This document shows, in pieces, positions 2,321-48,973 of a stretch of 64,000 nucleotides of DNA. The DNA is taken from NCBI GenBank assembly GCA_963694715.1, contig CAVOEB010000002.1, forward strand, positions 4,305 through 68,304, given 5' to 3'. Both the position numbers and the translations under genes were made by a program. The DNA is from Alphaproteobacteria bacterium. Its GTDB lineage: Bacteria > Pseudomonadota > Alphaproteobacteria > UBA828 > JAPUJA01. How positions within the stretch are numbered: the stretch's first letter is position 1; each line of letters opens with the position of its first letter. Below the pieces are notes generated by a model. It did not search any database. It had not been told where the DNA came from and worked only from the letters and a program-made list of their open reading frames with translations.

Positions 2321-3787
2321 TCAGCTATCGAGCCCGCCGACGCAGTGGTATTTGACCTCGAGGAACTCGTCGATGCCGTGATGGCTGCCCTCGCGGCCGA
2401 TGCCGGATTCCTTCATGCCGCCGAACGGGGCCTCGGGCGCTGAGATGATGCCTACATTGACGCCGATGATGCCGTATTCAAGCGCTTCGGCAACCCTCCA
2501 GACCTTGCCGATGTCGCGGCTGTAGAAATAGGCCGCGAGACCGAACTCGGTGTCGTTGGCGAGCCGGATCGCCTCGTCTTCGTCCTCAAAACGGAAGAGC
2601 GGCGCGACGGGGCCGAAGGTTTCCTCGCGCGCGACCTTCATCTGGGTATCGACCCCGGTGAGCACGGTGGGCTCGAAGAAGGTACCGCCGAGAGCGTGAC
2701 GTTTGCCGCCGGTGGCGACCTTGGCACCCTTCGAGACCGCATCCTCGATATGCTCCTCGACCTTTTCGACGCCCGCCATGTCGATCATCGGCCCCTGCTC
2801 GGAGCCGCCCTCGAGGCCGGGCGCTACCTTGAGCTTCGCCGCCGCCTTGGCGAAGGCGGTAGCGAACTTGTCGTAGACGCCATCCTGGACGAGAAAACGG
2901 TTCGCACAGACGCAGGTCTGGCCCGCGTTGCGGTATTTCGACTGCATTGCGCCGACGATGGCAGCGTCGATGTCGGCATCGTCGAACACGATGAAGGGCG
3001 CGTTGCCGCCCAGCTCCATCGAGACCTTCTTGACGGTGCTCGCGCATTGCTCGATCAGCTTTTTACCGACCTCGGTCGAGCCGGTGAAGGTCAGTTTGCG
3101 CACGATGGGGTTCGAGGTAAGCTCGCCGCCAATGGCGCCGGACGCACCGGTCACAACGGAGATGAGGCCCGCGGGAACCCCGGCACGCTCGGCCAGCTCG
3201 CACAGCGCCAGCGCCGAATAGGGTGTCGCAGTCGCGGGCTTGATGACCATCGGACAGCCCGCCGCCAGCGCGGGGCCCGCCTTGCGGGTGATCATGGCGG
3301 TCGGGAAATTCCACGGCGTGATCGCCGCGGTCACGCCGATGGGCTCCTTGGTCACGATGATGCGCCGGTCGGACAGGGCTGCGGGAATGGTCTCGCCGTA
3401 AACACGGCGCGCCTCTTCGGAGAACCAGTCGAGAAAGCCCGCGGCATAGGCAATCTCGCCCTTGGCCTCGGCGAGCGGCTTGCCCTGCTCGGCGGTCATG
3501 ATAACGGCGAGGTCTTCCTGGTTTGCCATCATCAGCTCGTACCAGTTGCGCAATATGACGCTGCGCTCCTTGGCCGAATTGGCGCGCCATGCCGGATAGG
3601 CCGCGCTGGCCGCCTCGATCGCGCGGCGGGTCTCGGCGGCGCCCATCTTGGGCACCGTACCCAGGACCGATCCGTCGGCCGGGTTTGTGACCTCGATGGT
3701 TTCGCCGGAATCGGCATCCTGCCATTCGCCGCCGATATAGCATTGCTGGCGAAACAGGCCCGAATCCTTCAGGTTCAGCGCGCTCAT
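2321..3787 (-). CDS. gabD: NADP-dependent succinate-semialdehyde dehydrogenase (aldehyde dehydrogenase family)
   Basis: 488-aa ORF with typical ALDH motifs (TFTGSTEVGK, ELGGNAP, catalytic Cys region QTCVCANR). The N-terminal pattern resembles GabD. Confidence 0.85.
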   Translation of the reverse strand: MSALNLKDSGLFRQQCYIGGEWQDADSGETIEVTNPADGSVLGTVPKMGAAETRRAIEAASAAYPAWRANSAKERSVILRNWYELMMANQEDLAVIMTAEQGKPLAEAKGEIAYAAGFLDWFSEEARRVYGETIPAALSDRRIIVTKEPIGVTAAITPWNFPTAMITRKAGPALAAGCPMVIKPATATPYSALALCELAERAGVPAGLISVVTGASGAIGGELTSNPIVRKLTFTGSTEVGKKLIEQCASTVKKVSMELGGNAPFIVFDDADIDAAIVGAMQSKYRNAGQTCVCANRFLVQDGVYDKFATAFAKAAAKLKVAPGLEGGSEQGPMIDMAGVEKVEEHIEDAVSKGAKVATGGKRHALGGTFFEPTVLTGVDTQMKVAREETFGPVAPLFRFEDEDEAIRLANDTEFGLAAYFYSRDIGKVWRVAEALEYGIIGVNVGIISAPEAPFGGMKESGIGREGSHHGIDEFLEVKYHCVGGLDS

Positions 3788-3869
3788 GATGCTTTCTCCC
3801 CTTCCAAATAGCGTGACGGGCGCGCACCGCGCGCCTCCGTGTTTCCAATCGTTATCGCGTGCAGCGGGC

Positions 3870-4769
3870 TCAGCTGTCGAGCAACTCGCTGATCTTGGTA
3901 CCCTCCCAGCCCTCGTTGCGCCGTGTCCAGTAGCTGTTGTGCAACTGGCTGGTGATCATGCCCGGCGCCCCGTTGCCCAGCGGCTTGTCGTCGATCGCCG
4001 TGACCGGCAGGACGCCGCCGGCAGACGAGGTCGCGAACGCTTCGTCGGCGTTACGCAGCTCGTCGGGATGGACCTTGCGGACCTCACAGGGAATGCCCTC
4101 GATCTCGCACAACTCGAGGGCGGTTCGGCGCGAAATGCCAAGCAGACAGTTTGCGTTGGGCGTCGCCGCCACGCCGTCCTTGACGACGAAGATGTTGAAG
4201 CCCGGCCCTTCCGAGAGATTGCCGTCGGGACCGCACAGCACCGCGTCGTCGCGGCCCGCCTCGTAGGCCTCGTACTGGCTCTGGATGAGATCGGCCCAGT
4301 GAAAATTCTTGTAGCGGGTGTCCACCGCCTTGCTCGAAATCCGCTCGATGCTCGACATGTGAATATTGACGCCCGCCTTGCTCTTCTCTTCACCCCACAG
4401 CCAGATATAGGGGCTGACGTAACAGGTGAACTGGTTCTCGCAAAGCCGGGGATCGCGCGTGCCCTCGGGGTACTGGCCGCGGGTGACGTGCATATGGATG
4501 AAGCCCGCGTCTTCGCATTCGGCGCGGCGCGTGCATTCGGCCAGCAGCTTTGCGGTCTCCTCGTCGGAATAGGGGTTTTTCAGGCGGAACCCGCCGCACG
4601 ACGCGCCGAAGCGCTCGAGATGCTCATCGAGCCTGAAAATCCAACCTTTCCAAGAAGTTGTGACGTCGTAAACGACGTCGGAGTGGAGGAATCCCGTGTC
4701 GAAGATAGAAATCTTGGCGTCTTCGAGAGAAACGAATTTGCCGCCGATGAACGCGCAGCCCATTGACAT
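3870..4769 (-). CDS. PLP fold-type IV aminotransferase (branched-chain / D-amino-acid aminotransferase family)
   Basis: ORF 3870..4799. I chose the internal start MSMGCAF at 4769 because it is preceded by AGGGAG, 7 nt upstream. The family fold is recognisable, but substrate specificity is not determinable. Confidence 0.7.
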   Translation of the reverse strand: MSMGCAFIGGKFVSLEDAKISIFDTGFLHSDVVYDVTTSWKGWIFRLDEHLERFGASCGGFRLKNPYSDEETAKLLAECTRRAECEDAGFIHMHVTRGQYPEGTRDPRLCENQFTCYVSPYIWLWGEEKSKAGVNIHMSSIERISSKAVDTRYKNFHWADLIQSQYEAYEAGRDDAVLCGPDGNLSEGPGFNIFVVKDGVAATPNANCLLGISRRTALELCEIEGIPCEVRKVHPDELRNADEAFATSSAGGVLPVTAIDDKPLGNGAPGMITSQLHNSYWTRRNEGWEGTKISELLDS

Positions 4770-4877
4770 CCGAGCATCTCCCTTTCCGATAACCGCCATG
4801 CAGTCTGTTGCGCTAATCTGAGGCCACGGTAGTCCACCGGCCGGGCCCTGACAAGCTCGCGCCGAGCGGCCCGAAGG

Positions 4878-6032
4878 TCAGCTGAGCGCGGCCTCGAAAT
4901 CAGCGATCAGCTCGGCGGCATCCTCGAGCCCGACGGAGCAGCGCACGAGGCCCGGGGTGATGCCCAGGGCCACGCGCTCGGCCTCCGGGACCAGCGCGTG
5001 CGAGGTGCGCACGGGAAGTGTTACGAGGGTTTCCGGGCCGCCCAGGCTGGGTGCGACGACGGGGATATCGAGCGCGGCGAGTAGCCGCTCAGCCGCCGAC
5101 TCGCCGGCCGCCATCTCGAACGCCAGCATCGCACCGAAACCGTCGAGCAGCGCGGCGGCGCGGGCATGATCGGGGTGGCTTTTCAGGCCGGGGTAACTGA
5201 CCCGGGAAACCGCAGGGTGGGCCTCAAGCGCGCGAGCCAGCGCAAGCGCGCTGGCTTCCTGCTGACGCAGGCGCAGTGCCAGCGTGGTCAGGCCGCGACG
5301 GACCAGGAAGCAGGCGTGGGGGTCGAGCGAGCCGCCCAGGCTCCACTGGGTGGCGCGCACCGTCTCGACCAGATCGGTGCGCCCGATCACGGCGCCCGCG
5401 ACGACGTCGGAATGGCCGTTGAGGTATTTCGTGGCGCTGTGGACCGAGAGGTCGTAGCCCGCCTCGGGGGGCCGGAAATTCGCCGGCGTGGCAAAGGTGT
5501 TGTCGATCACCGAGACCAGACCGTGGGTTTTGGCGAACTCAACGATACGGGGATGATCGGGAACCCGGACCAGGGGGTTGGTGACGGTCTCGACATAGAC
5601 TAGGCGGGTCTCGGGCGTGACGCGATCGGACCAGCCGTCGATGTCCTCGGCAGAGACCGGCGTGTTCGTAACCCCGTAGCGGGCAAGCAGGCCGTTGAGC
5701 AGGTCGTAGGTGCCGCCGTAGAGGCTGTCGAGTACCAGCATGTGATCGCCGGGCGAGACCAGAGACATCAGGGTGGTCGAAATCGCCGCCATGCCGCTTG
5801 AGGTGACCAACGCCGCCTCGGCGCCTTCGAGGGAGGCCAGGGCCTCGCCGAGCGCGAGCTGGTTGGGCGTATTGTTGTAGCGGATATAGCGCGTGCCGCG
5901 CGGATCGCCGACCCCGGTGGATTCGAACGTCGCGGTCTGAAAGATCGGCGTGATGACCGCGCCGTCGACACGCGGCTCAGGGGTGCCGCCATGAACGAGC
6001 TTGGTGGCGAAGGCCTTGGGTGGCTTCTTCAC
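4878..6032 (-). CDS. Cys/Met-metabolism PLP-dependent enzyme (cystathionine gamma-synthase / beta-lyase / methionine gamma-lyase family)
   Basis: 384-aa ORF with N-terminal TKLVHGG and the overall trans-sulfuration enzyme pattern, including the PLP-lysine region SATKYLNGHSD. Confidence 0.8.
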   Translation of the reverse strand: MKKPPKAFATKLVHGGTPEPRVDGAVITPIFQTATFESTGVGDPRGTRYIRYNNTPNQLALGEALASLEGAEAALVTSSGMAAISTTLMSLVSPGDHMLVLDSLYGGTYDLLNGLLARYGVTNTPVSAEDIDGWSDRVTPETRLVYVETVTNPLVRVPDHPRIVEFAKTHGLVSVIDNTFATPANFRPPEAGYDLSVHSATKYLNGHSDVVAGAVIGRTDLVETVRATQWSLGGSLDPHACFLVRRGLTTLALRLRQQEASALALARALEAHPAVSRVSYPGLKSHPDHARAAALLDGFGAMLAFEMAAGESAAERLLAALDIPVVAPSLGGPETLVTLPVRTSHALVPEAERVALGITPGLVRCSVGLEDAAELIADFEAALS

Positions 6033-8124: not shown

Positions 8125-9120
8125 TTATTCAAGGCGGAAGACGACCGGGACATCGACCACCGCCTGAACGGGCTGCCCGGCCACAAGCGCCGGTGCGAAA
8201 CGCCAGCGACGGACTGCGTCGAGCGCGGCCTCGTCGAGCAGGGCGTAACCGCTGCTGGTACGCAGCTCGACGGCGACGGGCGCACCATCGGCGAGCACCG
8301 TCACTGCGAGCAGGGCCTCGCCTTCCTGACCGCGCCGGCGCGCGAGACGCGGATAATCGGGCCACGGGTTGTCGAGCCCCGGAAGATCAAACAGCGGCGC
8401 GCGGTCCACGCCCGGCCCTGCGACGGCGGGCGCCGCACCGGGCTCCGCGTTAGCCACTCTCGGGGGGGCTTCGCTCGTGGTGCTCGCCGCCGTCTCGACG
8501 GCCTGTCCCAGTACGGATGAGGCAGAGGCCTCAACCAATTGCACCGAGGGTATGGCAACGGGACGAGTAGTGACTGGGGCGGCGCGCGCGGCAGCCAGTG
8601 CAGGCTTTGCCGTGAGCGTCAGCAGGGCGAGCGCGGCCAGGGTAGCTGTCGGGATTTCGGGCTCGGCGAGTTCGGGCTCGGATTCCAGTGGCGGCCCGGC
8701 GGTGGGCTCGATGGCGGCGAGCTCGGCGACGTGTGCGATCTCTAAGGCCGGCCCAACAACCGGTTCCGGTTCGGGGCGTACTATCGACGCTTCAACGACG
8801 ACGGGCTGGGCCGCAGGTGGTTCGATGACCGTCTCGACGGGGCTGACCTCGGCGGGGTTGGCGTTCTGCATCGCCGGTGGCGTTGCCGTCGCGGGCGTAT
8901 CGGCAGCGGCTTGCGGCGCGGCGCCGACGATCTCGACCACGAGGGCGGCGCCCTCCCCCGCCGCGTCGCGCGGCCCCGCGGCCGGCCACAGCAGAACCGC
9001 CGCGACGGCGGCATGGACCAGCAGGGAAATAGCGAGTGCTATTAGCATGACGCGCACGCGCCAACGCCGGGGCGAGGCCGCCTCGGCGACGATCCGGGGG
9101 CCGACGGCGAGCGTGGTCAT
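8125..9120 (-). CDS. tonB: Energy transducer TonB
   Basis: N-terminal membrane anchor, long Pro/Ala/Glu-rich spacer and a conserved TonB C-terminal domain. Last gene of the btu operon. Confidence 0.75.
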   Translation of the reverse strand: MTTLAVGPRIVAEAASPRRWRVRVMLIALAISLLVHAAVAAVLLWPAAGPRDAAGEGAALVVEIVGAAPQAAADTPATATPPAMQNANPAEVSPVETVIEPPAAQPVVVEASIVRPEPEPVVGPALEIAHVAELAAIEPTAGPPLESEPELAEPEIPTATLAALALLTLTAKPALAAARAAPVTTRPVAIPSVQLVEASASSVLGQAVETAASTTSEAPPRVANAEPGAAPAVAGPGVDRAPLFDLPGLDNPWPDYPRLARRRGQEGEALLAVTVLADGAPVAVELRTSSGYALLDEAALDAVRRWRFAPALVAGQPVQAVVDVPVVFRLE

Positions 9121-9917
9121 GGCGCAGTTTCCGGCCGCTCGGGAGCGAGACAGCGCCAGGGCAGGACATAGCCCTGGCCGTCGACCTCACCGCGCAAGGC
9201 AGCGATGCCGTAGGTCTCGCGCAAATTCTCTTCGGAGAGCACGGCCATGGGCGCCCCTTCGGCAACCGCATGGCCGTCGTTGAGCAACACGAGACGGTGG
9301 CAAAAACGGGCAGCCAGGGCGAGGTCGTGAAGCACAACCAGCACGCCGCCGCCCTTGGCCGCAACGCCGGCGATCAACTCCATGACCCGAAGCTGGTGGT
9401 AGGGATCGAGCGCGGTGACGGGCTCATCCGCCAGGAGCAGGCGCGGTTCGACCGCGAGCGCCCGGGCGATCAGGACGCGCATGCGCTCGCCGTCGGACAG
9501 CTCGGTTACCGGCCGCGCGGCAAACGCGGTGACGTCCGCCTCGCTCATGGCGCGCGCGATCGCCTCGCGGTCCGTCCGCGCCGGGCGCTGCCACGGGCCG
9601 AGATGGGGCAGGCGGCCCAGCGCCACGACGCGCTCGACGGCAAGCGGCCAATGCACGCCAGCGCCCTGCGCGAGATAGGCAACCTCGCGCGCCAACGCCC
9701 GGCGCCGACCGCGAGCCGGAGGCGCGCCGACGATCTCAAGCCGCGTGAACGTCGCCGGCACGAGCCCAGCCGACGCCTTGAGCAAGGAGGTCTTGCCCGC
9801 GCCGTTGGGTCCGATCAGGCCGACCACCTCGCCCGGCCTGACGTCGAGATCGACGGCGTCGAGCACGGTGTGCTCGCCGTAGCGGACGATCAGTGCGCGG
9901 GCGGTGAGCAGGCTCAT
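9117..9917 (-). CDS. btuD: ABC transporter ATP-binding protein (FecE/FhuC/BtuD family)
   Basis: Walker A GPNGAGKTSLL, LSDGERMRVLIARAL signature and Walker B. Overlaps neighbours by 4 nt. The B12 assignment is inferred from the upstream riboswitch. Confidence 0.75.
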   Translation of the reverse strand: MSLLTARALIVRYGEHTVLDAVDLDVRPGEVVGLIGPNGAGKTSLLKASAGLVPATFTRLEIVGAPPARGRRRALAREVAYLAQGAGVHWPLAVERVVALGRLPHLGPWQRPARTDREAIARAMSEADVTAFAARPVTELSDGERMRVLIARALAVEPRLLLADEPVTALDPYHQLRVMELIAGVAAKGGGVLVVLHDLALAARFCHRLVLLNDGHAVAEGAPMAVLSEENLRETYGIAALRGEVDGQGYVLPWRCLAPERPETAP

Positions 9918-10945
9918 AGCACCTCCCGGCGAACCTTGACGACGAGCCAGAGGAAGAACGGCGCGCCTACCAGGGCGGTAAAGACGCCGAGCCGAAGCTC
10001 GGGCCCGGTTGAGACCAGACGCACGGCGATGTCTGCGGCCAGGGTCAGCGACGCGCCGCCGAGCGCACTCGCGGGCAACAACACGCCCGGCCGGTGGCCG
10101 ACCAACGGGCGTAGGATGTGGGGCACGACCAACCCGATAAAGCCGATACTGCCCGCCACCGACACGGCTGCGCCGACGGCGAGAGCGACGCCGAGTACGA
10201 GACGCAGCCGCAGCCGCTTGAGATCGACGCCGAGCGTGCGCGCGGTCTCTTCGCCTAACGACAGGGCCTCAAGAGGCCGGCCCAACCCGGCTAATAAGAT
10301 CCAGCCCACCACCATGAAGGGGGCGGCGAGCTGGACATGCTCGAAGCTGCGGTCGGCCAGCGAGCCGAGCAGCCAGAACAGGATCTCCATCGCCGCGTAG
10401 GGATTGGGCGCGAGGCTGAGCGCCAGAGAAGTGAGCGCGGCGGCGAGGCTGTTGATGGCGATGCCCGCCAGGATCAGTGACAACCCACTGCTGCCGCGGC
10501 CCGCGAGCAGGTGGATCAGTACCACCGAGACGAGCGCGCCGGCCATGCCGCCGAGCGGCAAGGCGAGGGGAAAGGCGGCGGCGAACCCGAAATAAAACAT
10601 CACCACGGCGCCCAGCGCCGCCGAACCAGAAACTCCGATCAGCGAGGGCTCGGCCAGCGGATTGCGCAACAGGCCCTGGAGCGCCGCGCCGGCCAGCCCC
10701 AGGGTGGCGCCGATCATGGTGGCGAGGATCGCCCGGGGCAGGCGGATTTCCTGCAGGATCAGCGCCAGGACCGAGCCGTTGTCGGCAAACAGGTGGCCGT
10801 AGGATTCGATCAGCGGGATCGGCGCGCGGCCGACCCCGAGCGAAAGCAAGAAGAGGACCAGAACGAGCAAACTGAGGCCGGCGAACAGCCAGCCGTCGCT
10901 CCGCCCGGCGAGGCGGCCCGATGCGCTCGCCGCGGGGCCGCTCAC
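9914..10945 (-). CDS. btuC: FecCD-family ABC permease
   Basis: 343-aa polytopic membrane protein of the FecCD/BtuC family. Confidence 0.75.
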   Translation of the reverse strand: MSGPAASASGRLAGRSDGWLFAGLSLLVLVLFLLSLGVGRAPIPLIESYGHLFADNGSVLALILQEIRLPRAILATMIGATLGLAGAALQGLLRNPLAEPSLIGVSGSAALGAVVMFYFGFAAAFPLALPLGGMAGALVSVVLIHLLAGRGSSGLSLILAGIAINSLAAALTSLALSLAPNPYAAMEILFWLLGSLADRSFEHVQLAAPFMVVGWILLAGLGRPLEALSLGEETARTLGVDLKRLRLRLVLGVALAVGAAVSVAGSIGFIGLVVPHILRPLVGHRPGVLLPASALGGASLTLAADIAVRLVSTGPELRLGVFTALVGAPFFLWLVVKVRREVL

Positions 10946-11799
10946 GGCGCTTCTCCATCATTGACATCGAGCGCCGCGCGCGCCGCGTCGGCCAGAAACG
11001 CCACCGCCTCGGCGAGAAACTCGCCGCCGCAGATCCACAACCGCGAGGGCACGAACAGCGTGGGGCGCTGGGCGATCGCATGCTGGAGCGCGGGATGGCG
11101 CAACAGGGTCTGGCCGAGCGACGCGGCGCCGGGCCAGTAACGCTCCATGAGCAGGACGTCGGGGTCGGCCGCGAGCAGACGCTCGAGCGAGAGGTAGCCG
11201 CCCACGCCTAGTCCGACCCGGGGGGCGAGGTTGATCAACCCCGCCTGACCGAGCAGGTCGTCGATTAGGGACGGTGCGCCGATGGTATGGCCGTTGGTCT
11301 GATAGACGGCAGCCACGGGGCGCCAGGCGCCCACGGGCGGGGCCAGAGCGGCGAGCCGGGCGTCGAGCGCGGCAAGCAGCGCCTCCGCCCGCACCGCTTC
11401 GCCGATCGCGGCTCCGACCTCGCGGATCTGCTCGCGCACGTCGGCAAGACTTTGGGCAACGGGCAGCTCGAGCACCGGAACGTCCAAGCGGCGCAGCAGG
11501 TTGACAGTGGCGCGGGTACTCATCGTGCCCGCCAGGACCAGATCGGGATGGAGCAGCAGCACCTCGTCGGCGCTGCCGCGCACGACCGGGAAGCGCTCGG
11601 CTTCGGCCGCGTGGTAGGAAAGATAGGGATCGCGCGCCACGAAGCTAAGGGCCGCGATGTGTTCGGGCTCAGCCAGCTCGAGCAGGATTTGGTCGGCGCA
11701 AAGGTTGAGGGAGACGATGCGCTCGGACTTGGCAACTGCCGACTCCGCCAACAGGAGCAGCAGCAGTACCAGCGCCAGAATCACGGTTGCAAAACGCAT
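10942..11799 (-). CDS. btuF: Periplasmic substrate-binding protein (BtuF/siderophore-binding class)
   Basis: Signal peptide MRFATVILALVLLLLLLAESAVA followed by a class III SBP-like fold (IVSLNLCADQILLEL). Confidence 0.7.
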   Translation of the reverse strand: MRFATVILALVLLLLLLAESAVAKSERIVSLNLCADQILLELAEPEHIAALSFVARDPYLSYHAAEAERFPVVRGSADEVLLLHPDLVLAGTMSTRATVNLLRRLDVPVLELPVAQSLADVREQIREVGAAIGEAVRAEALLAALDARLAALAPPVGAWRPVAAVYQTNGHTIGAPSLIDDLLGQAGLINLAPRVGLGVGGYLSLERLLAADPDVLLMERYWPGAASLGQTLLRHPALQHAIAQRPTLFVPSRLWICGGEFLAEAVAFLADAARAALDVNDGEAP

Positions 11800-11825: not shown

Positions 11826-13763
11826 CTAGAAGTCGAACCCGACGCCGAACAGACCGGCGATGCCCGGGCGGGCGAATCCGTCGGCGATTTCGTAGTCGCG
11901 ATCAAACAGGTTTTCCACCCGGCCCTGCAGGTGCACGCCGTCACCCAAATCGTAGGCTGCCGCAACATCGACGACCGTGTAGCTCGCCATGCGCACGCCG
12001 CCCACATCTACGGTCGAGCCCGTGTGTAGGGTTGCGAAATTGACGGTCAGGAGATCGAGCGGATACCAGGTCAGATTGACCGACGCCTTGTGCTTTGGCC
12101 GGCGCAGCAAATCCTCGTTGATCGACGAATCGAACGCGCGGGTAAAGGTGTAGTCGAGAGCAACCAGAACCTCGGGCAACGGCTGCACCTCGATAAAGGT
12201 TTCGATCCCGCGGGTTTTCGCCTCGTCGACGTTGCGGGTGGTAAACAGACCGGCTCCGGCGTCGAACACGAAGCCATCGATCAACTCGTCGATGTCGTTC
12301 TCGAAATAGGTCGCGCCCAACACCAGGCGTCCTGCAAGCAGCTCCTGCTCGACCCCCGCATCCCAGCCGAAGCTCTTCTCCGGCACGAGATCGGCATTAC
12401 CGAAAAACAGTCCGCTCACGCCGCCGAACAGATCGACCAGCGACGGAGCCTTGAAGCCGGTGCCGACGCTGGCGCGAAATGTCGTCGCCGTCTCGAGATG
12501 GCGATAGCCAAGACTCGCGCCGTAGGTGGTTTCGGATTCGAAGTCCCGGTTGTTGTCGCCGCGCACGCCAAGCGTGCCGAATACGCGCTTCGCAAACTCG
12601 AATTGGTACTCGGCGAAGGCACTATAGGTGCGCGACTGATCGGCAAAATTGAAGAATGCGCCGCCTCCGCTCTCGCCCTGTTCACGGCGGGCCTCAAGCC
12701 CAAGCACCAGCGTGCCGAGTGGGGCAATCTGGAAATCGTTGAGCAGGGCCGCCTCCATGACCGTCCCGTCGAAGATCGAGCGGCTGGTCTCGCCGACCCC
12801 CGATTCGGGGGGATTGTCGTTCTGGAAATCCTGATCGTTGAACCCGCCCGTCAACCGGGCACCCCAGAGATCGTCAACGAGGTCGGCCTTAACGTCGAGC
12901 TGAGCCAGACGGATCGTTCTAGAATCTTCGGCGTTCACATCGTCCGCCCCGAAGCTATCGATTTCGGTGACAGCCCTGACATACTGGCCGTAGAGGTCGA
13001 CCGTCACGCTCTCAGTCGGTGAAAAACCCAAGGCGATAGACGCGACATCGTTGCGGAAGCCGTCGTTCTCGGGGTTGCCCTCATCGTCGGGTGCGATCGA
13101 GACGCCATCGGTCCTGAGCTTCGCCAGATTGAGCTGCATGGTCACCGGCCCGGCATCGCCTCCCAGCCCCCAACGGCCCGAGACGGTCCGAAAGCTTCCG
13201 GCTTCAACGTGAGCGGAACCGGTGATAGGTCCGCTGACCCGTTTGGTGATAACGTTAATCACCCCGCCGATGGCGTCGGAGCCGTACAATACGCTGCGCG
13301 GACCCCGGACGATTTCGATGCGCGCGATATTATCTACCAACAAAGATTGCGGATCGAACACTCCGCCCGATCCAGCCGGATCACCGGCCCGCCGGCCGTT
13401 GACGAGAAAGAGCACGTGATTCGACTCGGTGCCGCGCATGAAGATTGAGGTCGCCGTTCCAGCACCGCCCAACTGGACGAGATTGAGCCCGGGTACGCTT
13501 CGCAAAGCGTCGTTGACGGAGCGGTGCTGACGCTCCTCAATTTCCTCAGCCGTTATAATCGTGATGGAACTCGCGACGCTCGTCGCCGGGGTGGGCAGGC
13601 TGGTCGCGGTAACGACGACGGGAGACGTCGTCCGGGTTGCCGGCTCCGGGTCTGCGGCACCGACGGTCGAGCTGATCGAAAGGGCGGCAAGAAGCGACGC
13701 ACCGGCCGCGACAGCGAGGCGACGAGAGGGCAACGATCGAATAGAACGTGGTGATTCGGGCAT
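11826..13763 (-). CDS. btuB: TonB-dependent outer-membrane receptor, probable cobalamin receptor
   Basis: Start MPESPRS at 13763, preceded by GGAG. Signal peptide, TonB box SPVVVTATS, plug and barrel, C-terminal aromatic (…GFDF). Lies downstream of a cobalamin riboswitch. Confidence 0.8.
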   Translation of the reverse strand: MPESPRSIRSLPSRRLAVAAGASLLAALSISSTVGAADPEPATRTTSPVVVTATSLPTPATSVASSITIITAEEIEERQHRSVNDALRSVPGLNLVQLGGAGTATSIFMRGTESNHVLFLVNGRRAGDPAGSGGVFDPQSLLVDNIARIEIVRGPRSVLYGSDAIGGVINVITKRVSGPITGSAHVEAGSFRTVSGRWGLGGDAGPVTMQLNLAKLRTDGVSIAPDDEGNPENDGFRNDVASIALGFSPTESVTVDLYGQYVRAVTEIDSFGADDVNAEDSRTIRLAQLDVKADLVDDLWGARLTGGFNDQDFQNDNPPESGVGETSRSIFDGTVMEAALLNDFQIAPLGTLVLGLEARREQGESGGGAFFNFADQSRTYSAFAEYQFEFAKRVFGTLGVRGDNNRDFESETTYGASLGYRHLETATTFRASVGTGFKAPSLVDLFGGVSGLFFGNADLVPEKSFGWDAGVEQELLAGRLVLGATYFENDIDELIDGFVFDAGAGLFTTRNVDEAKTRGIETFIEVQPLPEVLVALDYTFTRAFDSSINEDLLRRPKHKASVNLTWYPLDLLTVNFATLHTGSTVDVGGVRMASYTVVDVAAAYDLGDGVHLQGRVENLFDRDYEIADGFARPGIAGLFGVGFDF

Positions 13764-13994
13764 GGCTGACTCCGTTGGGAAACGTGGAATCCGCTGACGC
13801 CGGACGAGAGACGGGGATCGCCCGGGTAACAACCGAGCAAAGCGCGGCACCCGGACGGATGATGAGACGATCGAGCTACGGAACTTGTGAGCGGCCACCC
13901 CGAACATCCCTACACGGCAACAGCAGTTCCCTGCGTCACCACATACGGATTAACCGTCCCGTCGGGAGTCCCCACCCAACGGGTATGCGACGCT

Positions 13995-14170
13995 ATCCGA
14001 CGGCAGGTCTCCTGGCTTGCGGGTCACCGCCCGACACCCGGCCTTCCCAGTTTCCCAGTGGCACACGAGGGGTGCGGACTCGCCGCTGACAGTTGCGGGG
14101 GCAGCCACGTTTCGGTCTCAATCCGACCGCACCGTGTTCCCTTTTCAGCCCGCAGAAGCGGGCACCGTCG
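13995..14170 (-). ncRNA. Cobalamin (AdoCbl) riboswitch in the btuB leader
   Basis: Minus-strand sequence reads GGTGCC…GGGAACACGGTGCGGTCGGATTGAGACCGAAACGTGGCTGCCCCCGCAACTGTCAGCGG…GTGCCACTGGGAAACTGGGAAGGCCGGG…AAGCCAGGAGACCTGCC. The B12-box and the conserved GCCACTG / GGGAAGGC elements of RF00174 are all present. Confidence 0.8.
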
Positions 14171-14188
14171 CTATAAGGACTATAGGCC

Positions 14189-21396: not shown

Positions 21397-21472
21397 TGGC
21401 GTCCCCAGGGGGAGTCGAACCCCCGTTTTCGGCGTGAGAGGCCGACGTCCTAGGCCACTAGACGATGGGGAC
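21397..21472 (-). tRNA. tRNA-Glu (anticodon CUC)
   Basis: Minus-strand sequence GTCCCCATCGTCTAGTGGCCTAGGACGTCGGCCTCTCACGCCGAAAACGGGGGTTCGACTCCCCCTGGGGACGCCA folds as a cloverleaf. Anticodon loop CTCTCAC gives CUC. Close match to E. coli tRNA-Glu. Encoded CCA. Confidence 0.85.
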
Positions 21473-24586: not shown

Positions 24587-25573
24587 ATGACGACGACAAG
24601 CCATCACCAGCTCGATGCCGGGGCCGACGCGGCAGGGCAGCGGCTCGATGTTTTCCTGACCCAGGCGCTGCCCGACCTTTCGCGCTCGCGCCTCAAGGCG
24701 CTGATCCTCGACGGCCGCCTCTCGCGTGACGGCCAGACGATAGCGGACCCCGCATACCGGGTCAAACCGGGCGAGCGCTTCGATCTAGTTCTGCCCGAGG
24801 TGCGCCCCGCGACGCCCGAGGGCCAGGCGATGCCGCTCAGCGTGGTCTATGAAGACGAGGCGCTGATCGTGATCGACAAACCGGCGGGCATGGTCGTCCA
24901 CCCAGCGCCAGGCAACCCGGATCACACCCTGGTCAACGCCCTGATCGCCCATTGCGGCGCCAGCCTCTCGGGCATCGGCGGCGTGCGCCGGCCGGGCATC
25001 GTCCACCGCCTCGACAAGGACACCAGCGGCCTACTGGTCGCCGCCAAGACCGACACCGCCCATCACGGCCTGGCCGAACAGTTCGCCGCCCACAGCCTGA
25101 CCCGGGCCTATCAGGCGCTGGTGTGGGCGGTGCTGCGCCCGGCCGAGGGCGAGATCGAGGGTAATATCGGGCGCAGCCCTAGAAACCGGAAGAAAATGGC
25201 CATCGTGACGCGTGGCGGAAAGCCGGCCCTGACCCATTACCGCCGGTTGGAGACCTTCGGCACGACGCTGGCCTGCCTGACCGAATGCCGGCTCGAAACC
25301 GGGCGTACCCACCAGATTCGGGTTCACCTCACCAGCCTCGGACACCCGGTCATCGGCGATCGGCTCTACGGCCGGGGCCGGCGCCGCGCAGTTGCGAAGG
25401 AAGTGAGCGAAACCGTGCGAACTGCGCTGGCAGGCTTTCCCCGTCAGGCACTGCATGCCGGCCGACTTGGCTTTCGCCACCCCATCGACGACCGGGAGCT
25501 GGAATTCGAAAGCCCTCTGCCCGACGACATGGCCGGACTGCTGAGCGTGCTCCGCGACGCGTCGACCGGCTAG
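24587..25573 (+). CDS. rluD: 23S rRNA pseudouridine synthase, RluA family (RluD)
   Basis: S4 domain followed by the catalytic HRLDKDTSGLLVAAKTD motif. 328 aa. Confidence 0.85.
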   Translation: MTTTSHHQLDAGADAAGQRLDVFLTQALPDLSRSRLKALILDGRLSRDGQTIADPAYRVKPGERFDLVLPEVRPATPEGQAMPLSVVYEDEALIVIDKPAGMVVHPAPGNPDHTLVNALIAHCGASLSGIGGVRRPGIVHRLDKDTSGLLVAAKTDTAHHGLAEQFAAHSLTRAYQALVWAVLRPAEGEIEGNIGRSPRNRKKMAIVTRGGKPALTHYRRLETFGTTLACLTECRLETGRTHQIRVHLTSLGHPVIGDRLYGRGRRRAVAKEVSETVRTALAGFPRQALHAGRLGFRHPIDDRELEFESPLPDDMAGLLSVLRDASTG

Positions 25574-25699: not shown

Positions 25700-26089
25700 C
25701 TATTCGGCAGCCACCGCGGCTTCGACCTGGTCGCCGGTGTAGATGAAGAACGCCTTGCGGACTTTGTCGCTGTGAATTGTCCAGGTCACGGTTTCGCCCT
25801 TCGTGGCGTAATGCGTATCGCCGGGGCCGAAGTTGTGCCCGGAGCCGTCGGGGAAGGTGATCGTGATGTTGCCTTCCAGAATGGTCGCCATCTCGTTCCA
25901 GGGATAGGTCGCCTTGAAACTTCCCTTGGTGCATTCCCAAACACCGACGATCAACGGAGTTTCAAGCGAGCCGTAATCGACACGACCGGATTGCTGCGGG
26001 GTGCCGTCAAGAAATTCGGCACCGCTCTCTTCGAGCGAAGGCCACGGATCGAGCCCGCTCTGGGACAGGTTTTGTGCATAATCAAGCAT
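25700..26089 (-). CDS. Cupin-fold protein (cupin_3/DUF861-like), paralog 1
   Basis: Start MLDYAQNL at 26089 with AAAGGA 6 nt upstream. About 80% identical to the next ORF. Confidence 0.7.
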   Translation of the reverse strand: MLDYAQNLSQSGLDPWPSLEESGAEFLDGTPQQSGRVDYGSLETPLIVGVWECTKGSFKATYPWNEMATILEGNITITFPDGSGHNFGPGDTHYATKGETVTWTIHSDKVRKAFFIYTGDQVEAAVAAE

Positions 26090-26213
26090 GGATTTATCCT
26101 TTGGGTTGGGGGCCCGCGACACGCTTCGTGCCGCTCGTTACGGGCCTGGACAGATTGTCGGATCGTCGGGCGCGGATGTCACATTCGGGCAGGACGTGGA
26201 AGCCACCACGCGA

Positions 26214-26241
26214 ACAAAAAAAGGCGGCTTCACGCCGCCTT
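26214..26241 (-). terminator. Rho-independent terminator after cupin paralog 2
   Basis: Minus-strand hairpin AAGGCGGCGTGAAGCCGCCTT followed by TTTTTTTGT. Confidence 0.5.
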
Positions 26242-26312
26242 CTGGATAGTCCCGGTCGTCTATGACCGTCCTGCAAGCCTCTCAAACCACTTGCTTCGTT
26301 TGTTTTTGCCGG

Positions 26313-26717
26313 TTATTCGGCCGCGACCGAAGCCTCGACCTGATCGCCGGTGTAGATGAAAAACGCCTTACGGACCTTCTCGCTGTGGATCGTCCAGGTC
26401 ACGGTATCGCCCTTCGTGGCGTAATGCGTGTCGCCGGGGCCGAAGTCGTGCGAAGAACCGTCCGGGAAGGTGATCGTGATATTGCCCTCAAGGATGGTGG
26501 CAAGCTCGTTCCAGGGATAGCTCACCTTGAAGCTGCCCTGGGTGCACTGCCAAACGCCAACGATCAACGGGGTCTCGAGCGAGCCGTAGTCGATGCGGCC
26601 GGACTGTGCGGGGCTGCCGCTCAGGATCTCGGCGCCGATCTCCTCGAGCGGATGCCACTGCTCTAGCCCATCCTGGGAAAGATTTTGTGCGTAATCAAGC
26701 ATAGGGGTCTCCCTCAA
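26313..26717 (-). CDS. Cupin-fold protein (cupin_3/DUF861-like), paralog 2
   Basis: 134 aa, near-identical to paralog 1 over most of its length (…GSLETPLIVGVW.CT.GSFK.YPWNE.ATILEGNITITFPDGS.H.FGPGDTHYATKG.TVTWTIHS.KVRKAFFIYTGDQVEA.VAAE). Confidence 0.7.
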   Translation of the reverse strand: MRETPMLDYAQNLSQDGLEQWHPLEEIGAEILSGSPAQSGRIDYGSLETPLIVGVWQCTQGSFKVSYPWNELATILEGNITITFPDGSSHDFGPGDTHYATKGDTVTWTIHSEKVRKAFFIYTGDQVEASVAAE

Positions 26718-26764
26718 TAAAAATTGCGTTCCGCGACGGATCGTCCGGGCGGAGTCTGCGGCGG

Positions 26765-26793
26765 ATTATGTTGCCGGACCCCTTGCCTGTCAA
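26765..26793 (-). promoter_or_regulatory. Sigma70-like promoter for cupin paralog 2
   Basis: Minus strand TTGACA-N17-CATAAT, about 75 nt upstream of the start. Confidence 0.35.
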
Positions 26794-26903
26794 CCGAGAA
26801 AACCACCACTCCGGCACATCATAATTTCTAAAAATCGTATGTTTTCAACGCCTTGATGATTTTAGAGACGCCGCTTCGTGTGCGGCCCGCTGTCGCAGGC
26901 GGG

Positions 26904-27287
26904 TCACGCCGCGGCGCGCGACGGCGCGACGTTCTGCAGACAGAATATCTTGCGGAAGGTCTCGGTCACCTCCCAGATTTCCGTGTCGCCCTTGGGTGTG
27001 AAAACCGTATCGCCGGGACCGACCTCGTAGGTTTGCCCCGCGGGATCGGTGATGCGCGCGCGGCCCGCGAGCACGATGTAGGTTTCGTCGCCCTGGCCGG
27101 TCCAACTCATGGTTCCCGGCGTGCATTCCCAGATCCCGACCTGTGTTGCGCTCTCGGCGGTGCCCACGTCGAGGCGGCCCGACTGGTGCGGATCGCCGGC
27201 GACTACCGCGGCATAATCAAGCTCGTCGAACGGTTCCCAGGCTTCGAGTTCGCCGCCATCGCGGCCATCGGCCCTGTATTGAAGCAT
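26904..27287 (-). CDS. Cupin-fold protein, divergent paralog 3
   Basis: 127 aa. Shares the …GSLETPLIVG(I)WECTPG…FTPKGDT..W…RK.F motif skeleton with paralogs 1 and 2 at roughly 35-40% identity. Confidence 0.6.
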   Translation of the reverse strand: MLQYRADGRDGGELEAWEPFDELDYAAVVAGDPHQSGRLDVGTAESATQVGIWECTPGTMSWTGQGDETYIVLAGRARITDPAGQTYEVGPGDTVFTPKGDTEIWEVTETFRKIFCLQNVAPSRAAA

Positions 27288-27495
27288 GATCCTCTCCCTC
27301 CCCTATTCTGCCGTTAAGCCCGCTCGATTGTCGGGCTCCCGTCGGGACGCTGTCAATGGAGCGGAACTGGACATTGGGATTTGTAGGTTCCCGGCTACTT
27401 TCCGTTCACGATTTATTGACCGGCTACGGGTCACAATTCCGCCGCGTCCCCCCATATAACAGGCGTCCAAGGGCGTTGTGCGATGTGCAATTTCC

Positions 27496-27525
27496 TTGAC
27501 AAATTGAGAACAAAGCGGGTAGATT
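27496..27525 (+). promoter_or_regulatory. Sigma70-like promoter of rpoH
   Basis: TTGACA (27496-27501), 18-nt spacer, TAGATT (27520-27525). Confidence 0.4.
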
Positions 27526-27550
27526 AGCACTCGATAGGCGAGAGTGCCAA
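27524..27550. promoter_or_regulatory. CIRCE-like inverted repeat (HrcA operator) overlapping the rpoH -10 region
   Basis: TTAGCACTC-gataggcga-GAGTGCCAA versus consensus TTAGCACTC-N9-GAGTGCTAA: 1 mismatch, correct 9-nt spacer. Confidence 0.45.
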
Positions 27551-27585
27551 TAATCCCGCCGGTCAGAATAGAACAGGTGAAAATC

Positions 27586-28491
27586 ATGGCTGTCGCACGC
27601 GTTCCCAGCATCTCCTCGGACACCGGTCTGTCGCAATATCTGCGCGAGATCCGCAAGTTTCCGATGCTTGAGCCAGGTCAGGAGTATGCGCTGGCCAAGC
27701 GGTTTCAGGAGGACGGCGACGTCGACGCGGCCCACCAGCTGGTGACCAGCCATCTGCGCCTGGTGGCTAAGATCGCGATGGGCTTTCGCGGCTATGGCCT
27801 GCCGGTCAACGAGCTGATCTCCGAAGGCAATGTCGGCATGATGCAGGCGGTTAAGCGTTTCGACCCGGAACGCGGCTTTCGCCTCGCGACCTACGCCATG
27901 TGGTGGATCCGCGCCTCGATCCAGGAATATGTCCTGCGGTCCTGGTCGCTCGTGAAGATGGGGACCACGGCGGCGCAGAAGAAGCTGTTCTTCAATCTGC
28001 GCAAGATCAAGGGCGAGCTCAAGGCCTTGGATGCGGGCGATCTGACGCCTGAGCATACGCGTCAAATCGCCGAACGCCTTGGCGTCTCGGAGACCGAGGT
28101 GACCAACATGAACCGCCGGCTGTCCGGCCCAGACCAGTCGCTTAATGCGCCGCTCCGCGAAAACGGCGAGGGCGAATGGCAGGATTGGCTGGAGGAGAGC
28201 TCGGTCGATCAGGAAACCCAACTGGGCGAATTCCAGGAGACGGCCCAGCGCCGGCGCATGTTGAACGACGCCATGGCAGACCTCAAGGATCGTGAGCGCC
28301 ACATCCTGGTCGAGCGGCGCCTGAGCGAGGAGCCCAAGACCCTGGAGGAGCTCAGCCAGCAATACGGCATCTCGCGCGAACGCGTGCGCCAGATCGAGGC
28401 CCGTGCCTTTGAGAAACTCCAGAAGGCCATGGTCGCCTCCGAAGCGGAAGAACGCCGACAGGCCCGCGAGGCGATTCCGCCCGCGTCCTAA
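27586..28491 (+). CDS. rpoH: RNA polymerase sigma-32 (heat-shock sigma factor)
   Basis: Start MAVARVPSISSDTGLSQYLREIRKFPML. RpoH box region QRKLFFNLRKIKGEL and regions 2-4 all present. Confidence 0.85.
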   Translation: MAVARVPSISSDTGLSQYLREIRKFPMLEPGQEYALAKRFQEDGDVDAAHQLVTSHLRLVAKIAMGFRGYGLPVNELISEGNVGMMQAVKRFDPERGFRLATYAMWWIRASIQEYVLRSWSLVKMGTTAAQKKLFFNLRKIKGELKALDAGDLTPEHTRQIAERLGVSETEVTNMNRRLSGPDQSLNAPLRENGEGEWQDWLEESSVDQETQLGEFQETAQRRRMLNDAMADLKDRERHILVERRLSEEPKTLEELSQQYGISRERVRQIEARAFEKLQKAMVASEAEERRQAREAIPPAS

Positions 28492-28526: not shown

Positions 28527-28557
28527 CGGGGCCGGCCTTACGCCGGCCCTTTATTTT
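28527..28557. terminator. Terminator hairpin between convergent rpoH and the 28551 membrane-protein gene
   Basis: GGGGCCGGC-ctta-CGCCGGCCC followed by TTTATTTT. Confidence 0.45.
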
Positions 28558-46675: not shown

Positions 46676-48415
46676 TTACATCCCCATTCCGCCCATTCCG
46701 CCCATTCCGCCCATTCCGCCCATTCCGCCCATTCCGCCCATTCCGCCCATTCCGCCCATTCCACCCGGGGGACCAGCACCGGGTCCACGGCCCATCGGCG
46801 GCGCTGCCGGCGGCTCCTTGGGCACATCGGGCGATTCCGTAATCATCGCCTCGGTGGTGAGCATGCGGGCGGCAACCGAGGCTGCATCTTCCAGCGCGCA
46901 GCGGACCACCTTGGTTGGGTCGATGATGCCGGCCTTGAAGAGATCCTCGTAGGTACCGGTTTCGGCGTTGAAGCCGATCGCCGGGTCCTTAGCGTCCATG
47001 CACTTCTGCACCACGACCCAGCCGTGCTCGCCCGCGTTTTCTGCGATCTGGCGTATCGGTTCCTGGAGAGCCTCGCGGACGATGTTGGCCCCGACGCGCT
47101 GGTCAGAATTTGGAAGCTCTATCTTGTCGAGAGCCTTGCGCGCTCGCAGCAATGCCAGGCCGCCGCCCGACACAACTCCCTCGGCAATCGCCGCACGGGT
47201 CGCGTTGAGCGAGTCGTTGACCCGATCCTTGCGTTCACGAACCTCGGTCTCCGTCGTGCCGCCGACACTGATGACTGCGACGCCCGAGGACAGTCGCGCG
47301 AGCCGCTCGTTGAGCTTCTCGTAATCGTAGGACGCTTTGGTGACCTCCATGGTCTTGCGGATTTCCTCGCACCGCTTCTTGAGATCTGCCTTCTTGCCTT
47401 TGCCGCCGATGATGGCGCAGTCGTCCTTGCGCACGACCACCTTGTCGACCCGGCCCAGCATGTCGAGGGTGACGTTTTCCAGCTTTTCGCCAGCGTCCGC
47501 ACTAACGTAATGAGCACCGGTGAGGATCGCGATGTCACGGAGCGATTCCTTGCGCCGGTCACCGAAACCCGCCCCCTTGACCGCAACGCACTTTAGGCCG
47601 CCCTGGACCTTGTTGGTCACCAGCGTCGCCAGGGCCTTGCCCTCAACGTCCTCGGCCACGATAAGGAGCGGCTTCTTGGCCTTGATGACGAGCTCGAGCA
47701 GTGGCACGAGAGCCGGAATCGCGTCGATCTTGGCTTCGAAGCACAGGACTAGCGCGTTGTTGTACTCACAGACCATCTGCTTGGGATCGGTGACGAAATG
47801 CGATGACAAATAGCCGCGATCCCATTTCATGCCCTCGGTCAGCTTGATTTCGGTCGTAAGGGACTTGCCCTCGTCGACACTAACGAGACCGTCGGTGCCC
47901 ACCGTCGTCATCGCCTCGGCGATCCACTCGCCAACCTCGCTATCGTTGTTGGCCGCAATGGTCGCAACCCGCGCGATCTCGTCGCGTTTTCCGATGGTGC
48001 GGCTCTGCTTCTTGAGCTCGTTGGCCACGGCCTTGGTCGCCGCGTCGATCCCCCGCTCGAGATCGATCGGGTTCATCCCGGCCGCCACGGCCTTGATCCC
48101 CTCACGCGCGATGCAGTGGCTAATCACCGTCGCCGTCGTGGTGCCATCGCCCGCCACATCGTTGGTACGCATCGCGACATCGCGAATCAGGCGCGCGCCC
48201 ATATTCTCGAACTTGTCTTCGAGCTCGACTTCCTTGGCGACGGTCACACCGTCCTTGGTGACCCGCATGCCCATGCTGAACGACTTAGTCAGCAGCACAT
48301 TACGCCCCTTCGGGCCGAGCGTTATCGCCACCGCCCTGTTCAGGATCTCGACCCCTCGAATCATGCGCTCACGGGCCTCCGCGGAAAACACGATATCCTT
48401 CCAGGATTCGGCCAT
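46676..48415 (-). CDS. groL: Chaperonin GroEL (divergent paralog with (GGM)9 tail)
   Basis: Start MAESWKDIVFSAEARERMIRGVEIL at 48415. GDGTTTATV and the equatorial/apical domain pattern. Only about 50% identical to canonical GroEL by eye. Confidence 0.85.
   Translation of the reverse strand: MAESWKDIVFSAEARERMIRGVEILNRAVAITLGPKGRNVLLTKSFSMGMRVTKDGVTVAKEVELEDKFENMGARLIRDVAMRTNDVAGDGTTTATVISHCIAREGIKAVAAGMNPIDLERGIDAATKAVANELKKQSRTIGKRDEIARVATIAANNDSEVGEWIAEAMTTVGTDGLVSVDEGKSLTTEIKLTEGMKWDRGYLSSHFVTDPKQMVCEYNNALVLCFEAKIDAIPALVPLLELVIKAKKPLLIVAEDVEGKALATLVTNKVQGGLKCVAVKGAGFGDRRKESLRDIAILTGAHYVSADAGEKLENVTLDMLGRVDKVVVRKDDCAIIGGKGKKADLKKRCEEIRKTMEVTKASYDYEKLNERLARLSSGVAVISVGGTTETEVRERKDRVNDSLNATRAAIAEGVVSGGGLALLRARKALDKIELPNSDQRVGANIVREALQEPIRQIAENAGEHGWVVVQKCMDAKDPAIGFNAETGTYEDLFKAGIIDPTKVVRCALEDAASVAARMLTTEAMITESPDVPKEPPAAPPMGRGPGAGPPGGMGGMGGMGGMGGMGGMGGMGGMGGMGM
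46685..46765 (-). repeat. Nine tandem copies of a 9-nt unit (CATTCCGCC on the plus strand) encoding the (GGM)n C-terminal tail of GroEL
   Basis: Eight perfect and one imperfect unit, read directly from the sequence. Confidence 0.9.
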
Positions 48416-48452: not shown

Positions 48453-48740
48453 TCAGGCGACCACCGCAAGAATGTCGTTTTCGCGTACGATCAGCATATC
48501 CTTGCCATCGAGCTTGACCTCGGTGCCCGAATATTTTCCGTAGAGCACGCGGTCGCCAGATTTAACCGTCAGTTTGATCAGCTTGCCGTTCTCGTCGCGC
48601 ACGCCCGAACCGACGGACACAACCTTGCCCTCGCTGGGCTTTTCCTGCGCCGTATCGGGAATAATGATGCCACCGGCGGTCTTTTCCTCGCTCTCAAGCG
48701 GCTTAATTAGCACGCGATCATGAAGAGGTCTGAATTTCAT
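48453..48740 (-). CDS. groS: Co-chaperonin GroES
   Basis: [35 protein letters not shown]…. Confidence 0.9.
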
Positions 48741-48812
48741 TGGTCACTCCCACCCTTCGAACGCCCCGGTTGGGGCAGAAATCCTTGAAAACTAGAGCTT
48801 TTCCCTAGTTTG

Positions 48813-48839
48813 TTAGCACTCGTTGCTTGTGAGTGCCAG
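48813..48839. promoter_or_regulatory. CIRCE element (HrcA operator) in the groES leader
   Basis: TTAGCACTC-gttgcttgt-GAGTGCCAG. Perfect left arm, 9-nt spacer, right arm 2 mismatches from GAGTGCTAA. Confidence 0.6.
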
Positions 48840-48840
48840 A

Positions 48841-48869
48841 TATGTAGGAGAATGCGCGCCGCCTGTCAA
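48841..48869 (-). promoter_or_regulatory. Sigma70-like promoter of groES-groEL
   Basis: Minus strand TTGACA-N17-TACATA immediately upstream of the CIRCE element. Confidence 0.45.
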
Positions 48870-48973
48870 GAACACACCCTGTTAATCGCCGGCAATCTTA
48901 GCGTTAACAGCCGGCTAGCCATTTCAAGCGAAGCTCATTTCCACTCAGAATTCAAGCGAAGATGGTCCTTGCG

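Follow-up and report, generated by a model that had tools for sequence, protein, structure and literature searches.

The window examined here is a 64-kb stretch of DNA from an uncultured marine lineage of Alphaproteobacteria. It carries a canonical rpoH gene, which encodes the heat-shock sigma factor sigma32, at 27586-28491 on the + strand. The protein of 301 residues scores 371.8 bits on the equivalog model TIGR02392 (rpoH_proteo), for which the cut-off is 323.1, and matches the Pfam domains Sigma70_r1_2, r2, and r4. The RpoH-box-like stretch AQKKLFFNLRK is present in the translation. A Shine-Dalgarno sequence, AGGTGA, can be read at 27575-27580 (+), 5 nt before the ATG at 27586. Since a hairpin with a T-run, resembling an intrinsic terminator, comes after the gene at 28528-28550 (+), rpoH is probably monocistronic. 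Further RpoH paralogues are possible elsewhere in the genome.

As in other Alphaproteobacteria, rpoH adjoins rluD, which lies at 24587-25573. In the window lineage, three genes on the opposite strand have been inserted between the two. These are tandem Cupin_3 (EutQ-like) genes, found at 25700-27287 (-); in other lineages rluD lies directly before rpoH.

The proximal rpoH promoter predicted by a promoter scan is of the sigma70 type. Its -35 hexamer TTGACA lies at 27496-27501 (+) and its -10 hexamer TAGATT at 27520-27525 (+), with 18 nt between them, and 10 of the 12 hexamer positions match. In most relatives the -10 reads TAAATT.

A search with the CIRCE consensus places a putative HrcA operator directly on this promoter. 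The element is an inverted repeat of 27 bp at 27524-27550 (+), made up of the left arm TTAGCACTC (27524-27532), the spacer GATAGGCGA (27533-27541), and the right arm GAGTGCCAA (27542-27550). Compared with the consensus TTAGCACTC-N9-GAGTGCTAA, it agrees at 17 of 18 arm positions and has the canonical spacer of 9 nt. CIRCE begins with the final two bases of the -10, and the predicted transcription start, about 7 nt past the -10 at approximately 27531-27533, would fall within the element. From CIRCE to the rpoH ATG the distance is 36 nt. CIRCE here occupies the classic position of a repressor site, on the -10. An earlier note on this DNA had described a near-consensus CIRCE with an N9 spacer over the putative -10 of the sigma32 gene, and this description holds, with one mismatch to the consensus and an overlap of two bases. 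The range given there, 27496-27550, includes the promoter as well; CIRCE proper is only 27524-27550.

When the whole window is searched with up to 3 mismatches allowed, only two CIRCE sites are found, one at rpoH and one at groESL (48813-48839). In 100 shuffles of the window that preserve dinucleotides, the mean is 0.01 sites per window, and two sites occur in 0 of the 100. The probability that the rpoH repeat is a chance inverted repeat is negligible. Nothing but its small size speaks for such an origin, whereas 0.01 sites are expected per window, the repeat is kept in relatives, and sites of this kind are enriched about 150-fold upstream of rpoH. Chance is thus refuted by the shuffles, by the conservation, and by the enrichment.

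The intergenic region of 298 bp that holds CIRCE is common to rpoH and to a divergent cupin gene (26904-27287, -), which might therefore be the regulated gene in place of rpoH. This is very improbable. The distance from CIRCE to the cupin start is 237 bp, as against 36 bp to the rpoH ATG, and the cupin gene has a promoter-like site of its own at 27356-27327. Moreover, lineages without the cupin gene, in which a co-directional rluD is the neighbour, still have CIRCE before rpoH; in the window lineage CIRCE stayed with rpoH when the cupin genes came in between. The cupin gene was rejected as a target on account of its own promoter-like site and of the rluD neighbour elsewhere.

The second CIRCE of the window belongs to the chaperonin genes. 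These are groES (48453-48740, -; 95 residues; Pfam Cpn10, and NCBIfam GroES above the curated cut-off) and groEL (46676-48415, -; 579 residues with a long GGM tail; TIGR02348 at 715.7 bits against a cut-off of 582.1). The CIRCE in the groES leader that had been reported at 48813-48839, TTAGCACTCGTTGCTTGTGAGTGCCAG, is real and has 2 mismatches. In the orientation of the genes it reads CTGGCACTC-N9-GAGTGCTAA. Directly abutting it, a putative promoter can be read at 48840-48870 (-), consisting of CTTGAC(A), 17 nt, and CTACATAT. The -35 is a perfect TTGACA and the -10 resembles CCCCATNT; a sigma70 scan of the groESL strand found no promoter. Whether this promoter is sigma32-like or sigma70-like is ambiguous. 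The ten contigs with an identical GroES also have identical upstream DNA, so that they provide no comparative footprint for it.

The two elements of the window had been said to have the same right arm. This is true if both are taken on the + strand, but not in the orientation of the genes, since groESL is on the minus strand. There, groESL has its variant half-site on the promoter-proximal side and rpoH on the promoter-distal side.

The surroundings of groESL have some further features. Between the CIRCE of groESL and the start of groES there is another small palindrome, AAACTAG-N9-CTAGTTT, at 48780-48810 (-). The GroEL of the window still scores as GroEL, although its N-terminus, MAESWKDIVFSAEARERM, is atypical and its proline-rich linker with the (GGM)n tail is unusually long. 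Among contigs of the same population the length of groEL varies from 540 to 579 residues, with some of the genes ended by contig edges; a variable repeat tail may be the reason.

Elsewhere in the window, a cobalamin riboswitch (Rfam RF00174, 116.7 bits) is found at 13985-14184 (-), upstream of an ORF of 693 residues (11826-13907). Downstream of this ORF are genes for a periplasmic binding protein (10942-11799), a FecCD permease (9914-10945), and TonB (8125-9120). Together, the riboswitch and the transport genes look like a locus for B12 uptake. A tRNA-Glu gene (CTC) is located at 21397-21472 (-).

Close relatives of the window lineage show how the rpoH element has changed over time. The exact RpoH protein of the window is found on metagenome contigs only, and all of these carry CIRCE. 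One of them, L001, has one change in the CIRCE spacer and another in the spacer of the promoter. Protein searches and contig look-ups provided five further relatives, whose RpoH proteins are 94% (L171), 93% (L175), 92% (L177), 85% (L173), and 81% (L172) identical to that of the window. CIRCE is present at the homologous position in 5 of 5. Its left arm is unchanged in these relatives and its right arm differs at position 25 only.

An alignment of seven sequences (A1) can be divided into fixed and changing parts. The pattern CCTTGAC...GAGAACAAA...GGTA[A/G]ATTAGCACTC is invariant, as is the right arm AGAGTGC[C/T]AA, and the AGGTG of the Shine-Dalgarno sequence is conserved. The seven spacers all differ, namely GATAGGCGA in the window, GACAGGCGA, GATAGGTGA (L171), GATAGGTAA (L177), GACAGGAGA (L175), GGTCGGCGA (L173), and TTCCCTTGA (L172). 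Between CIRCE and the ATG there are substitutions as well as indels. Because these indels are not multiples of 3, the stretch is non-coding. Fixed arms with a changing spacer and changing flanks are what one would expect if a protein binds the palindrome on a promoter. Judged from these sequences, the CIRCE arms are under purifying selection and the spacer drifts. The comparison of rpoH upstream regions that the earlier note had proposed therefore speaks for its reading: the element is kept in place with intact arms and different spacers in five relatives at 81-94% identity. Among more incomplete or more distant sequences, L174 has no CIRCE within its 67 nt of upstream DNA, and L176, with an RpoH of 74% identity, has none upstream of rpoH.

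The right arm of the window had been interpreted as a lineage-specific variant of the HrcA site. The relatives argue against this, since four of the five nearest have the perfect consensus arm GAGTGCTAA at rpoH, and GAGTGCCAA is found only in the window population and in L173. The variant is a T-to-C change at position 3/25 of CIRCE, which is commonly variable, and it recurs in the unrelated loci L011, L017, L064, and L124. It is also on opposite sides of the element at rpoH and at groESL. The same change is known from groESL sites of Desulfovibrio, which read cTgGCACTC-N9-GAGTGCcAA (PMC545781, Table 8), so the G/C variant at position 3/25 appears to be commonly tolerated. By this comparison, the right-arm variant of the window is a single recent substitution and not a lineage-specific recognition sequence.

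The region 3' of rpoH has also changed among the relatives. In L171, two transposase genes (DDE_Tnp_1 and Transposase_mut, at 3530-4942) lie just after rpoH, where the window has hypothetical genes.

A second conserved block is found upstream of the proximal promoter in alignment A1. It lies at 27400-27461 (+) and consists of TTCCGTTCACGATTTATTGACC ... CACAATTCCGCCGC ... CCCCCCATATAACA, the middle part of which is invariant. Inspection and a promoter scan of this block found no pair of sigma70 or sigma32 hexamers at a workable spacing. It may serve a regulator, or another sigma factor as a distal promoter of rpoH. Since it may be another promoter, control of rpoH by HrcA could be partial.

The occurrence of CIRCE at rpoH was also followed in other Alphaproteobacteria. 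Relatives of RpoH were taken from collections of species-representative genomes and of metagenomes, with identities of approximately 64-75% among the matches listed. Upstream DNA was long enough in 151 loci; a locus was counted as positive if the 400 nt before rpoH held a CIRCE with N9 spacing and no more than 3 mismatches. Among the matches listed, 15 of the 151 rpoH loci are positive and about 135 lack the element. In the same loci, the rpoH-upstream DNA (61.7 kb) contains 15 CIRCEs, compared with 1 in the remaining 646 kb. Because most of the alphaproteobacterial rpoH loci examined have no CIRCE, this wiring is optional.

The positive loci were placed on a neighbour-joining tree of RpoH proteins. 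The clade of Reyranella, Enhydrobacter, and Vineibacter has CIRCE in all of its loci (11 of 11 among the matches listed). The other positive loci belong to four scattered lineages: L017 (Stella sp.), L155, L064, and L124, the last two of which adjoin an Acetobacteraceae-type group. L017 is the one positive case of several Stella/Stellaceae loci examined. Among the matches listed, no rpoH CIRCE is found in Caulobacterales, Sphingomonadales, Parvibaculum/Rhodobiaceae, Azospirillum, or most Stellaceae loci.

The arrangement of the promoter is similar throughout. In every positive lineage, CIRCE overlaps or directly follows a promoter of the TTGAC.../TA.A.T type, and in L017 (Stella) and L155 the -10 and CIRCE share two bases, exactly as in the window. 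In 7 of the 7 positive loci checked outside the window lineage, the immediate upstream gene is a co-directional pseudouridine synthase of the RluD type. Since this gene is co-directional, rpoH is the only possible target of CIRCE in those seven loci.

Some sites do not fit the search pattern. L061, a sister of the positive L155, has a CIRCE-like site before rpoH at 2422-2447, TTAGCGCTC-N8-GTGTGCTAA, with a spacer of 8 nt and 2 arm mismatches. This is possibly a decaying or variant operator. Because of its 8-nt spacer, scans restricted to N9 will undercount such sites. L144 (Sphingomonas-type) has a CIRCE-like site with 3 mismatches at a distance of 1.1 kb before rpoH; it is not present in 11 related loci and is probably due to chance.

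The spacers contain a hint about the origin of the wiring. That of the window, GATAGGCGA, and that of L021, a Rhodospirillales MAG (2432-2440), GATGGGCGA, share 8 of their 9 positions, and the two RpoH proteins are about 72% identical. Either the sites have a common origin or there is an unrecognised constraint on the spacer. The near-identity suggests a single old CIRCE with repeated losses, and not convergent gains.

Another motif was observed near these promoters. Among the matches listed, 17 of 151 loci have the sequence [CT]TAGT[AC]GG in the 300 nt before rpoH, compared with 0 of 151 in the in-gene control. It lies approximately 8-12 nt upstream of the rpoH -35 in L008, L010, L012, L021, L022, L029, L031, L088, L090, L113, and others. 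Reyranella-type loci with CIRCE and Stellaceae loci without CIRCE both have it, and it is absent from the window.

An inverted repeat in a 5' leader might also act as RNA. In this case, the rpoH leader would form a hairpin that affects the stability or translation of the mRNA, for instance as a thermosensor. The 27-mer does fold, with an energy of -9.1 kcal/mol and a z-score of -3.2. For leaders of the Reyranella type, pairing of 8-10 bp is possible between the CIRCE spacer and the 9 nt past the right arm, and RNAalifold prefers this hairpin to the one formed by the two arms. In the window lineage, CGCC can pair with GGUG of the Shine-Dalgarno sequence; this stem is weak, and 2 of its pairs have changed on both sides in the 7 sequences.

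Nevertheless, an RNA function is quite unlikely. With the -10 at 27520-27525, transcription is predicted to start inside the left arm or the spacer, and because the start would be inside the element, the transcript would lack part of the CIRCE hairpin. Folding of the 5' leader (27532-27610) is no better than that of its shuffles (z = 0.17), the site has no Rfam match at the gathering threshold, and the spacer/downstream stem of Reyranella is without any pair that has changed on both sides.

The arms are kept as sequence and show no compensatory changes. In all sites of the Reyranella clade, TTAGCAGTC stands opposite GAGTGCTAA, which makes position 7 non-complementary (G-G). The T-to-C change in the right arm of the window is likewise uncompensated in the left arm (A-C). 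The retained G-G clash and the uncompensated change indicate that CIRCE is recognised as a sequence and not by pairing. Across the 19 distinct rpoH CIRCEs, 14 of the 18 arm positions have 2.0 bits of information, compared with 0.2-1.4 bits per spacer position.

The alternative hairpin of the Reyranella clade can be described separately. There, the spacer GACGGGTGA has its complement in ACGCCCGTT, the 9 nt that immediately follow the right arm. The loci concerned are L010, L012, L021, L022, L029, L031, L092, L106, L110, and L115, in the region from CIRCE to +20. The structure is unproven.

A DNA operator thus remains the preferred reading, and it is quite probable that the 27-bp repeat serves as a functional CIRCE operator for HrcA on the core promoter of a canonical rpoH. 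One might instead suppose that the palindrome is read by a regulator other than HrcA, or that HrcA binds without effect on rpoH, so that the site is neutral or decaying. No hrcA was found in the 64 kb of the window, either by a motif search in six frames or by Pfam scans of 20 of its ORFs (285-427 aa). The distribution is patchy across lineages, and L061, with its 8-nt spacer and 2 arm mismatches, shows that sites can decay. Such a reading is nonetheless unlikely. The site has 17 of the 18 positions of the HrcA consensus and the same motif is on groESL; its arms are unchanged across 81-100% RpoH identity, while the flanks and the spacer change; and its place on the -10 is classic for a repressor.

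If HrcA does act here, the following circuit can be proposed. A dimer of HrcA at -10/+1 of the rpoH promoter would block either the binding of RNA polymerase or the formation of the open complex, and rpoH transcription would be low at normal temperature. Under stress, unfolded proteins would titrate GroEL, a step modelled on B. subtilis. HrcA would then become inactive and both rpoH and groESL would be derepressed. The rise in sigma32 would in turn switch on the sigma32 regulon. Newly made GroEL would finally reactivate HrcA, which would shut off rpoH and groESL again.

In such a circuit, HrcA and GroEL would stand above sigma32. If the groESL promoter depends on sigma32, then HrcA, sigma32, and groESL would form a coherent feed-forward loop onto groESL. 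HrcA binding at rpoH, its dependence on GroEL, and the position of the start are all parts of the model that we infer. The earlier note had suggested that an HrcA site on rpoH couples the two heat-shock regulons hierarchically. With a CIRCE that appears to be selected at rpoH both in relatives and in other lineages, this is a reasonable reading.

The balance tips slightly towards a still wider proposal, in which HrcA/GroEL would control the synthesis of sigma32 at the step of transcription initiation, making HrcA the master switch of the heat-shock response in several alphaproteobacterial lineages. These would be the uncultured marine lineage of the window, the whole Reyranella/Enhydrobacter/Vineibacter clade, L017, and the MAGs near Acetobacteraceae.

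Where a bacterium has both heat-shock systems, the usual description is that sigma32 and HrcA act in parallel on overlapping sets of chaperone genes. If HrcA has an operator on the rpoH core promoter, the two systems would become hierarchical, and the availability of chaperonin would set the level of sigma32. In the comparative data, CIRCE at rpoH is not a one-off but is selected and recurs across several alphaproteobacterial lineages. If HrcA acts there as proposed, predictions of regulons in these organisms should treat genes with sigma32 promoters as indirectly dependent on HrcA. Cultured carriers of the arrangement exist, for example Reyranella and Enhydrobacter.

Parts of the proposed circuit are familiar from Bacillus subtilis. 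Its class I heat-shock operons, dnaK and groE, have a sigmaA promoter followed by CIRCE, and the activity of HrcA is modulated by GroE. Mogk et al. reportedly described in 1997 that HrcA of Bacillus subtilis needs GroEL/GroES to stay active. The window resembles these operons in having CIRCE at -10/+1 of a promoter for the housekeeping sigma factor, and the mechanism of GroEL titration is borrowed from there. It differs in its target, which is the gene of a sigma factor and not a chaperone operon. To our knowledge, B. subtilis has no sigma32, and groESL is a universal target of HrcA.

Among Alphaproteobacteria, the groESL operons of Caulobacter, Bradyrhizobium, Agrobacterium, and rhizobia have a heat-shock promoter and CIRCE. 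We know of no report of a CIRCE at rpoH in these model organisms. Examples of CIRCE at rhizobial groESL operons have been summarised (PMC3989490). The groESL genes of the window are similar to those of the models, with a promoter and a CIRCE that abuts the -10-like CTACATAT.

In E. coli, rpoH is controlled by multiple promoters and by a thermosensor in its mRNA, and DnaK/J and GroEL/S feed back on the activity and stability of sigma32. Negative feedback of chaperone availability on sigma32 is also what is proposed here. However, the feedback in E. coli is post-transcriptional and works without HrcA or CIRCE, whereas that of the window would act on the initiation of transcription. Also unlike E. 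coli, no thermosensor-like structure was detected in the rpoH leader of the window.

The remaining system for comparison is Geobacter sulfurreducens, whose rpoH gene is said to have been characterised by Ueki and Lovley in 2007 (Microbiology 153:838). A consensus CIRCE was predicted at -51 of rpoH in this organism by Rodionov et al. 2004, together with CIRCEs on groESL and on hrcA-grpE-dnaKJ (PMC545781, Table 8). G. sulfurreducens is the only organism in that survey with CIRCE at rpoH (PMC545781). In the literature searched on HrcA, CIRCE, and rpoH, no CIRCE at rpoH was found besides this prediction, and none for Alphaproteobacteria, for which the arrangement is apparently unreported. The treatment of the rpoH CIRCE as unusual is therefore justified in part: an HrcA operator on rpoH is supported, but its novelty was overstated in view of the prediction for G. 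sulfurreducens (PMC545781). Because the same wiring was predicted there twenty years ago, the advance is modest.

The two cases are alike in several respects. Both have a consensus N9 CIRCE before the rpoH start (at -51 in G. sulfurreducens and at -62 here), a CIRCE on groESL in the same genome, and a logic in which HrcA would stand above sigma32. Unlike G. sulfurreducens, which belongs to the Deltaproteobacteria (Desulfuromonadales), the window is alphaproteobacterial. In Geobacter, CIRCE also controls hrcA-grpE-dnaKJ, and the wiring seen in the window is conserved across several lineages.
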